From a virus (taxonomy: Monodnaviria > Loebvirae > Hofneiviricota > Faserviricetes > Tubulavirales > Inoviridae): a stretch of 14,667 nt of DNA. A program made the position numbers and the translations under genes. The notes beneath the pieces were generated by a model. That model ran no database searches and was not told the origin of the DNA. It worked only from the letters and a program-made list of their open reading frames with translations. The stretch lies in the IMG/VR virus record IMGVR_UViG_2609459846_000001; one strand, written 5' to 3'. How positions within the stretch are numbered: position 1 is the stretch's first letter; each line of letters begins with the position of its first letter. Positions 9,086-9,784 of the stretch are shown piece after piece.

Positions 9086-9784
9086 ATGAAAGTATTAAAT
9101 ACAACCGGAATTAATTTTTATCTAGAACATTTAATTAATACATCAATTAATGAAGTTTATTTGATTAGTCCATATTTAAAGATTTCATCCGTACTTCGTG
9201 AACTTATTGCGCACAAAGCAAACTCTGGAGTAACATTTCATATTGTTTTCGGAAAAAAAGACTTGAATAAAGATATTTTTATTTGGCTAACAGAATTACC
9301 ACATATTCACTTAATGTTTTGTCATAACCTTCATGCAAAATGCTACATGAATGAAACGATGTCTATAATTTCAAGTTTAAACCTTTATGATTTCAGTCAA
9401 ATAAATAACTTAGAGCTTGGTGTGCTATTAAATCGTGACGATGATCATGATTGTTTTAATGACTGTAAATATGAGGTTGAACGCATACTAAGAGCAAGCT
9501 CAGAGAAAACTTTAGAAGTTCCAAACAAGCCCCTACCGCAAAAATTAACTATTTCAGGCCTATCCTCAAAATATAATTTAAAACACAAAGATGTATATTC
9601 CCGCTTATTAGATCTCGGCTATTTAACTAAGGGGGATTCTGGTTTTCTTCTGACACCGTTAGGTCAAAAAGCAGGGGGGGAGTTTAAACCTGATAAATTC
9701 AGAAAAGGGGAGTATTATTTCTTATTCCCTACCGATATTCTCGATAAAAAAAGAGGTTTCTTTGATATCTTATTGGGGAAATAA
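9086..9784 (+). CDS. Single-HKD PLD-family nuclease-like protein with a C-terminal ~90-aa domain of unknown function
   Basis: 232 aa. The N-terminal ~140 aa match the Nuc-type PLD layout: [18 protein letters not shown], then [17 protein letters not shown], which fits HxK(x)4[D/E](x)6[G/S]SxN. The gene is about 30% GC, preceded by a 150-bp T-rich tract and an AAGGGGG ribosome-binding site. Confidence 0.6.

Follow-up and report, generated by a model that had tools for sequence, protein, structure and literature searches.

Introduction

Modular nucleases of the phospholipase D (PLD) superfamily have been described in several families, among them BfiI/NgoAVII, SauUSI, the END nucleases and the enzymes that join a PLD domain to a winged helix (PLD-wH). 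Here, we analyse a PLD gene carried by a filamentous prophage (Inoviridae) in the IMG/VR record IMGVR_UViG_2609459846_000001, a stretch of 14,667 nt that we call the window and in which positions are 1-based. The gene lies at 9086..9784 on the + strand, stop codon included, and its 232-aa product is predicted to work like the modular PLD nucleases but lacks the features that define each of these families.

END-PaCF1 and its relatives are single-gene nucleases that have no methyltransferase and combine an N-terminal PLD domain (HxK) with a C-terminus determining the substrate (PMC12191111). According to the same authors, the PLD core also occurs with other C-termini, a winged helix-turn-helix (wHTH) among them. 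By description, the window protein is set apart from END nucleases, in which an inactivated, endonuclease-III/OGG-like C-terminal domain senses hypermodified bases: the window protein has a small winged helix instead and gave neither a Pfam nor a structural match to such a sensor. Besides, END nucleases were found in defence islands and not in inoviruses, whereas the window gene resides in an inovirus.

A second likeness concerns Aba4572I and CbaI, in which a PLD domain is likewise followed by a winged helix and a cognate methyltransferase is lacking. The winged helix of this class is DpnI-like and reads Gm6ATC, the genes avoid Dam+ genomes, and the enzymes are toxic in Dam+ E. coli (PMC11037411). 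With its identical domain order, the window protein could accordingly belong to the PLD-wH class of Helbrecht et al. and be a type IV restriction enzyme that depends on m6A, its winged helix reading Gm6ATC. However, no DpnI similarity is detectable in the winged helix of the window protein. Furthermore, members of its family reside in E. coli, Salmonella, Klebsiella and Vibrio, all of which are Dam+, so that the avoidance typical of the class is missing. Since the hosts are Dam+ and the winged helix shows no DpnI similarity, a specificity for Dam methylation is extremely unlikely.

The restriction enzymes BfiI and NgoAVII, both of type IIS, are about 120 aa longer than the window protein and have a B3-like beta-barrel recognition domain together with paired methyltransferases, in contrast to the wHTH found here. 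Neither the window nor the RefSeq annotation of this locus contains a methyltransferase gene, and no cognate one was found in the annotated family loci that we inspected. An earlier reading of the window from its letters alone (the sequence-only reading) had compared the gene to BfiI and pointed out the absence of an adjacent methyltransferase. The latter point is correct, and from the comparison the order of a PLD nuclease and a DNA-binding domain can be retained, but not a BfiI-type recognition barrel with its methyltransferases. Nuc of pKM101 and NucT of H. pylori differ in another respect, as they are exported, single-domain and non-specific, whereas the window protein has no signal peptide and an extra C-terminal domain.

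Similarity to catalogued defence systems is limited. The PLD profiles of DISARM DrmC and Mokosh MkoB-MkoC are weakly similar (PADLOC DrmC E 1.9e-5 for the window protein and down to 4e-9 for relatives; MkoB 7e-9), but the window protein scores 17 bits against an NCBIfam equivalog cut-off of 133 for DrmC, and no DISARM or Mokosh partner gene, including drmA, drmB and the methyltransferase, lies beside the window gene, whose neighbours are phage genes. In the profile of the PADLOC candidate PDC-S69 (289 positions) only the C-terminal wHTH finds a match, at profile positions 77-148 or 5-69, which suggests that PDC-S69 contains tandem copies of the winged helix and no PLD domain. Our literature searches brought up no functional study of the protein and no paper on its family, on PDC-S69 or on PLD genes of inoviruses or IncHI plasmids.

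Domain architecture and catalytic motif

The N-terminal domain (aa 1 to ~140; 9086..9505, + strand) has the alpha/beta fold of the PLD (HKD) superfamily. Pfam PLDc_2 matches residues 15-118 with an E-value of 5e-5 and 23.5 bits, slightly below the gathering score of 27; close relatives score 33-37 bits, and all 58 members of our family alignment (~40-47% overall identity) match at E<=1, the best at 2.8e-11. Profile and structure comparisons bear out the PLD-fold assignment of the sequence-only reading. The match to Tdp1 is much weaker than that to Nuc-type nucleases.

The single HKD-type motif proposed in that reading is also present (H83-A-K85-C-Y-M-N89-E90 ... S96-S97-L-N99), and the whole catalytic motif, N81-L-H83-A-K85 ... 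N89-E90 ... S97-x-N99 ... E110, is encoded at 9326..9415 (+ strand). The 58 sequences show no variation at N81, L82, H83, A84, K85, S97, N99, L100, Y101, F103, S104, Q105, N108, E110 and G112; at least 90% of them keep N89 and E90. The superfamily motif HxK(x)4D(x)6G(S/T)xN, with its catalytic His and Lys, appears as H83-x-K85-x3-N89-E90-x6-S97-x-N99 and deviates from the canonical HKD form by an E in place of D and a loop shorter by one residue. For Nuc, the published residues are H94/K96/S109/N111/E122. Judged by spacing rather than by residue-level superposition, the motif residues of the window protein probably correspond to these, the distances being 16 (H to N) and 11 (N to E) compared with 17 and 11 between H94, N111 and E122 of Nuc.

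This conservation bears on whether the gene is a catalytically dead or decaying cargo, be it a DNA-binding protein that keeps only a PLD-like fold, as TrmB and FAM83 do, or a silenced remnant. The motif residues H, K, S, N and E are invariant among proteins just 40% identical overall, and the core is kept across the 686 clusters of the profile search described below. In addition, the open reading frame (ORF) is intact in all 13 carriers among 5426 complete E. coli genomes, and the cluster of the window protein at 90% identity comprises 53 sequences. All of this speaks against decay, and we regard it as highly improbable.

The N-terminus leaves no room for an export signal: residues 2-4 already form strand beta-1, residues 6-18 form a helix of the PLD fold, and the conserved MKxLNT of the family alignment is not hydrophobic. 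Therefore, the protein is most likely cytoplasmic. The C-terminal domain (aa 148 to ~220 plus a short tail; 9527..9784, + strand) comprises ~85 aa with a helix-turn-helix and a beta wing. Its structural matches are winged-helix proteins, and it belongs to the small, MerR/excisionase-like type, in agreement with the winged helix that the sequence-only reading had considered possible; DNA binding as such is predicted from this fold. In the collected loci, the domain is always fused to a PLD domain (170 family ORFs that carry it). At the sequence level, neither the protein nor the family profile nor the C-terminal domain gave more than chance matches in the PDB. A topoisomerase C-terminal repeat was also considered for the C-terminus and rejected, as it found no Pfam or structural support.

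By analogy with the enzyme class, we propose that the protein is a stand-alone, cytoplasmic nuclease with the N-terminal domain as its catalytic part. Two copies would pair to form one active site, as in Nuc, BfiI and Zucchini, which would cut phosphodiester bonds without metal via a covalent phospho-histidine intermediate. The winged helix, connected by a short linker, would hold the enzyme on its nucleic-acid substrate.

The PLD gene is optional cargo of the prophage

A comparison of the empty yahK-yahJ site (locus L018) with the occupied loci L001 and L002 shows that the mobile unit extends from window position 1 to ~9902 with a CTG core at both ends; L002 is a second insertion of the same unit, at hcxB/ybiB in strain E400634. 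The prophage's right end lies 115 bp beyond the PLD gene, which is part of the element and not, as had been supposed, a separate islet at the junction of prophage and host. In 12 of the 13 E. coli carriers the match stops at the right end of the element, and therefore the prophage occupies another site in those genomes.

Related phages show that the gene is dispensable. Nothing follows the secretin gene in L092, whose structural module is 99% identical but whose replication module is of the Rep_trans kind and which lacks an IS110 gene, and the slot is also empty in L176 and L177. Three loci at hcxB/ybiB or yoaA/yoaB share the IS110 and replication module, and there the slot is filled by a DUF2726 gene (L093:17638-18297; L174:16729-17295; L175:16799-17179), whose product (DUF2726 match E 3e-26) starts with a transmembrane segment. 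DUF2726 is a restriction-endonuclease-like family, the slot gene has a guanine-plus-cytosine (GC) content of 0.288, and PADLOC gave no match for its protein, which may be a second uncharacterised inovirus-borne nuclease. Two other enterobacterial inoviruses (L005-L007 in E. coli and L016 in Salmonella Berta) have PLD genes of 61% and 44% identity in the same last-gene position together with different replication genes.

The composition of the gene is atypical as well. Its GC content of 0.315 is below that of the remainder of the mobile element (0.469) and of the yah genes in the host flank (0.558), as the sequence-only reading had indicated. Two other lineages show the same tendency (PLD gene/phage backbone 0.319/0.452 and 0.291/0.461), and both slot cargos are AT-rich relative to their own phages (GC 0.29-0.32 compared with 0.45-0.49). 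Taken together, the gene lies inside the element limits and moves with the element, is missing or replaced in close phages and is atypical in composition, as expected for a moron. It is thus optional prophage cargo in an accessory slot 3' of the morphogenesis genes; of the two earlier suggestions, phage cargo or a small independent defence gene, the first applies, and the independence does not. A comparable arrangement is ctxAB of CTXphi, which is also optional, atypical in composition and placed behind the morphogenesis genes, ahead of the regulatory/replication module. However, ctxAB encodes a secreted toxin, while the product of the window gene is predicted to be a nuclease acting inside the cell.

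The gene is read from an ATG preceded at 4 nt by a Shine-Dalgarno-like AAGGGGG (9075..9081, + strand), as seen by direct sequence reading, and 9086..9784 holds no other long ORF. Further upstream lies the long T-rich tract that had been noticed before (8990..9076, + strand; 64% T). A consensus scan of this leader detected no convincing sigma-70 promoter on the + strand, and the promoter and terminator scan at best equalled shuffled sequence. Rfam has no match in or near the gene, and only naRNA4/REP repeats in the host flank. RefSeq lists the product as WP_028120317.1, 'phospholipase D family protein', and older records call it 'DNA repair protein'.

Family distribution and genomic neighbours

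The gene is not an orphan, as first assumed: apart from the existing RefSeq label, 1373 homologues were found at E<=0.001, nearly all of 220-270 aa and with more than 90% query coverage. Among phage records, the search matched only seven inoviruses, all of Vibrio (a V. cyclitrophicus element and f237-like vB_Vipa phages), and the variable region that holds their PLD gene was given no function by Foxall et al. In IMG/VR, 66 of the 73 loci with a family member also encode Zot. With the window and four reference loci added, 71 loci have Zot, and in 61 of these the PLD gene is on the strand of Zot, at a median distance of 1.07 kb downstream. These inovirus carriers represent at least 10 Zot clusters (40% identity), compared with just 2 clusters of PLD proteins (50% identity).

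Beyond inoviruses, at least 578 species genomes of many phyla contain a family member. A restriction to inoviruses was considered and rejected, since Zot is nearby at only 3 of the 80 best genome loci. Most members are distant from any phage or IS110 gene, and the Vibrio inoviruses with a PLD gene have no annotated IS110 gene. Both observations argue against a role in the life cycle of IS110-integrating inoviruses, in which the wHTH would act in the manner of an excisionase or directionality factor, or in which a replication or integration intermediate, such as a covalent Rep-DNA adduct, would be resolved by the PLD domain. The DUF2726 protein with its transmembrane segment, which takes the same slot, has no wHTH, and the Tdp1 match falls far short of the Nuc-type match. 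Such a function is consequently very unlikely.

Plasmids are a second major habitat: 625 carry a family member, 582 of them predicted to be conjugative, and they are mainly large plasmids from Klebsiella, E. coli and Salmonella. On IncHI-type (MOBH) plasmids the gene is part of a block DUF1173 - thermonuclease - PLD - H-NS (p14ODMR L178:7498-9777; pPMK1-NDM L179:8393-10618). It lies within ~4 kb of psiA on pPMK1-NDM and ~2 kb from an orphan C5 methyltransferase on p14ODMR, so that two predicted nuclease genes, thermonuclease and PLD, adjoin each other in an apparent establishment region. Hundreds of large conjugative MOBH plasmids share this block.

Chromosomal and integrative contexts are varied. 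In Pseudomonas the PLD gene is carried by a conjugative element, flanked by integrases on one side and a ParE/RelB pair on the other, and in Acinetobacter it is chromosomal and syntenic, which may reflect a domesticated lineage. In several Acinetobacter species the gene (L012:7173-7913) stands directly 3' of the gene for a 246-aa protein that lacks an annotation and matches TPR only weakly. Apart from this Acinetobacter synteny, neighbour clustering at the 80 genome loci revealed no conserved partner gene, and because no partner recurs, we reject a two-gene system. Defence genes are found around the PLD gene in genomes: 132 PADLOC models were matched at E<=1e-10 by flanking genes (108 proteins), compared with 16 models by genes 7-10 kb away (74 proteins), a rough comparison that counts models rather than proteins and involves no formal test. 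The matches include MADS, Hachiman HamB, AriA/OLD-type ATPases, AbiEii, AbiLi, DRT and Nsn. The survey of homologue contexts suggested in the sequence-only reading returned inoviruses, conjugative plasmids and defence genes; on the other side stand the chromosomal synteny in Acinetobacter and the lack of inovirus specificity.

An exhaustive profile search yielded 686 cluster representatives at E<=1e-30, many of which share the PLD core only and differ in their C-termini. The alternatives comprise a topoisomerase-type Zn ribbon, double Zn ribbons, HRDC with a Zn ribbon, an OB fold with HRDC, and three tandem wHTH. Modules of the Topo Zn ribbon, HRDC and OB types typically bind single-stranded DNA (ssDNA).

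Proposed function

A constant nuclease core with swappable tails, a patchy distribution, AT-richness, defence neighbours and the exchange of the slot with a nuclease-like gene together form the signature of a conflict gene. In this light, the nuclease would attack incoming foreign DNA, either a superinfecting phage or a plasmid, from which the resident prophage and its host would benefit, and would not require a partner methyltransferase for restriction. For this role, exclusion or restriction of incoming DNA in the conflict between mobile elements, we see about an even chance. The target might be recognised as hypermodified DNA, as by END nucleases, or by its form, such as ssDNA.

The strongest competing reading is a role in establishment or anti-defence on behalf of elements whose DNA enters single-stranded. 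Here, the protein would serve the incoming filamentous phage or conjugative plasmid itself and not be directed at other invaders; it might, for instance, break down a nucleic acid or signal of host defence, or process DNA ends. In favour of this reading are the bias towards inoviruses, which account for nearly all viral matches, and conjugative plasmids, the IncHI neighbourhood with psiA or the orphan methyltransferase, and the alternative tails of types that typically bind ssDNA. Against it, the scarcity of Zot genes near the genome copies has to be considered, and many of these copies are chromosomal and adjoin defence genes. Furthermore, PLD genes are not mentioned in a survey of plasmid leading regions (PMC11541004). 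We consider an establishment function rather unlikely and continue to favour exclusion.

More speculatively, the PLD core with its swappable tails could represent an unrecognised exclusion system common to filamentous phages and conjugative plasmids, both of which enter as ssDNA. Incoming ssDNA of a competitor would then be destroyed or uncoupled from its pilot protein, and the element's own DNA would be shielded by ssDNA-binding proteins. We consider this idea distinctly unlikely.

Further features of the prophage

The remaining gene order is that of a filamentous phage preceded by an integration gene. The left end (1..183, + strand) starts with the CTG core at 1-3 and is non-coding; it lies 5' of an IS110-family (DEDD) recombinase gene (184..1149, + strand; Pfam DEDD_Tnp_IS110 2.1e-20 and Transposase_20 4.2e-16, in agreement with RefSeq). 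The phage core (1152..8559, + strand), delineated from the ORF list, RefSeq annotation and Pfam, encodes a GPA-type replication endonuclease (1152-3155), several small ORFs, a pIII-like protein with a Gly/Ser/Thr repeat (4351-5928), DUF2523 (5946-6233), Zot/pI (6245-7303) and the secretin/pIV (7300-8559), all on the + strand. The right end (9785..9902, + strand) terminates in the repeated CTG core at 9900-9902.

Within the 526 bp between the secretin and PLD genes, a long near-perfect hairpin of ~69 nt (8821..8889) stands out, with an ssDNA fold of -45.6 kcal/mol (z = -11.4). Its core CCCGCCCGCAGGG.CGAGGACGGGAG is also present in a different E. coli inovirus lineage, there downstream of the PLD gene, and it is probably a packaging signal or an origin hairpin.

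The replication protein (667 aa) is a relative of P2 gene A (Phage_GPA, E 6e-49), while sister phages with a 99%-identical structural module carry Rep_trans instead. Mosaicism is strong among the E. coli inoviruses: a genome can have up to 8 matching places, and L177 shows tandem copies. A long (GSGT)n/(GT)n repeat lies at about residues 350-410 of the pIII-like ORF, which measures 1578, 1614, 1632 or 1704 nt depending on the strain, a variation that suggests a slippage-prone linker in the adsorption protein. In the host flank, five tandem REP/BIME-type repeats (12705-13146; Rfam naRNA4, 72-78 bits) lie in the yahH region between yahI and yahG and account for long spurious ORFs on both strands.

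A side finding concerns the left end. We compared window 1-183 with L175:7850-8040 and L005:1441-1632. Between the window phage and a sister phage inserted at yoaA/yoaB only 7 of 190 positions differ, and these fall into two short blocks that vary with the insertion site. Block 1 (~63-72) reads ..ACTCC.. where the hcxB and yahK targets are ACTCC|CTG, and ..CCCCC.. where the yoaA target is CCCCC|CTG. In block 2 (~87-94, position 89), the reverse complement is CTGTTTAA for the hcxB target CTGTTTAT, and CTGTTGAA for the yoaA target CTGTTGAT. The blocks thus follow the left flank (ACTCC or CCCCC) and the core plus right flank (CTGTTTA or CTGTTGA) of the insertion sites, and all three sites are located just 5' of start codons (yahK, hcxB and yoaA). 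Judging from these covarying letters, the left end looks like the gene of a programmable guide (bridge) RNA that would direct prophage integration; yahK would then be a near-cognate site with one extra mismatch in block 2. When the left end was searched with plain 7-mers, guide-target matches remained at chance level, and only the near-identical left-end alignment is informative. One RefSeq record names the recombinase 'IS110 family RNA-guided transposase', and no publication on a filamentous phage that integrates under RNA guidance came up in our literature search.

Conclusion

If its product is active as an exclusion or defence nuclease, the PLD gene would be a compact (~230 aa), metal-independent and methyltransferase-free immunity gene that travels with filamentous prophages and, in Klebsiella, E. 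coli and Salmonella, with hundreds of large IncHI-type resistance plasmids. It would affect which phages and plasmids enter clinical strains and therefore be relevant for phage therapy and the spread of resistance. The design of a PLD nuclease plus a swappable sensor would be extended to new DNA-binding modules, and, should exclusion indeed act on ssDNA, self and non-self would be discriminated independently of methylation by the form of DNA entry. The accessory slot of inoviruses is known for toxins such as CTX; with an active PLD nuclease, it would carry conflict genes as well.
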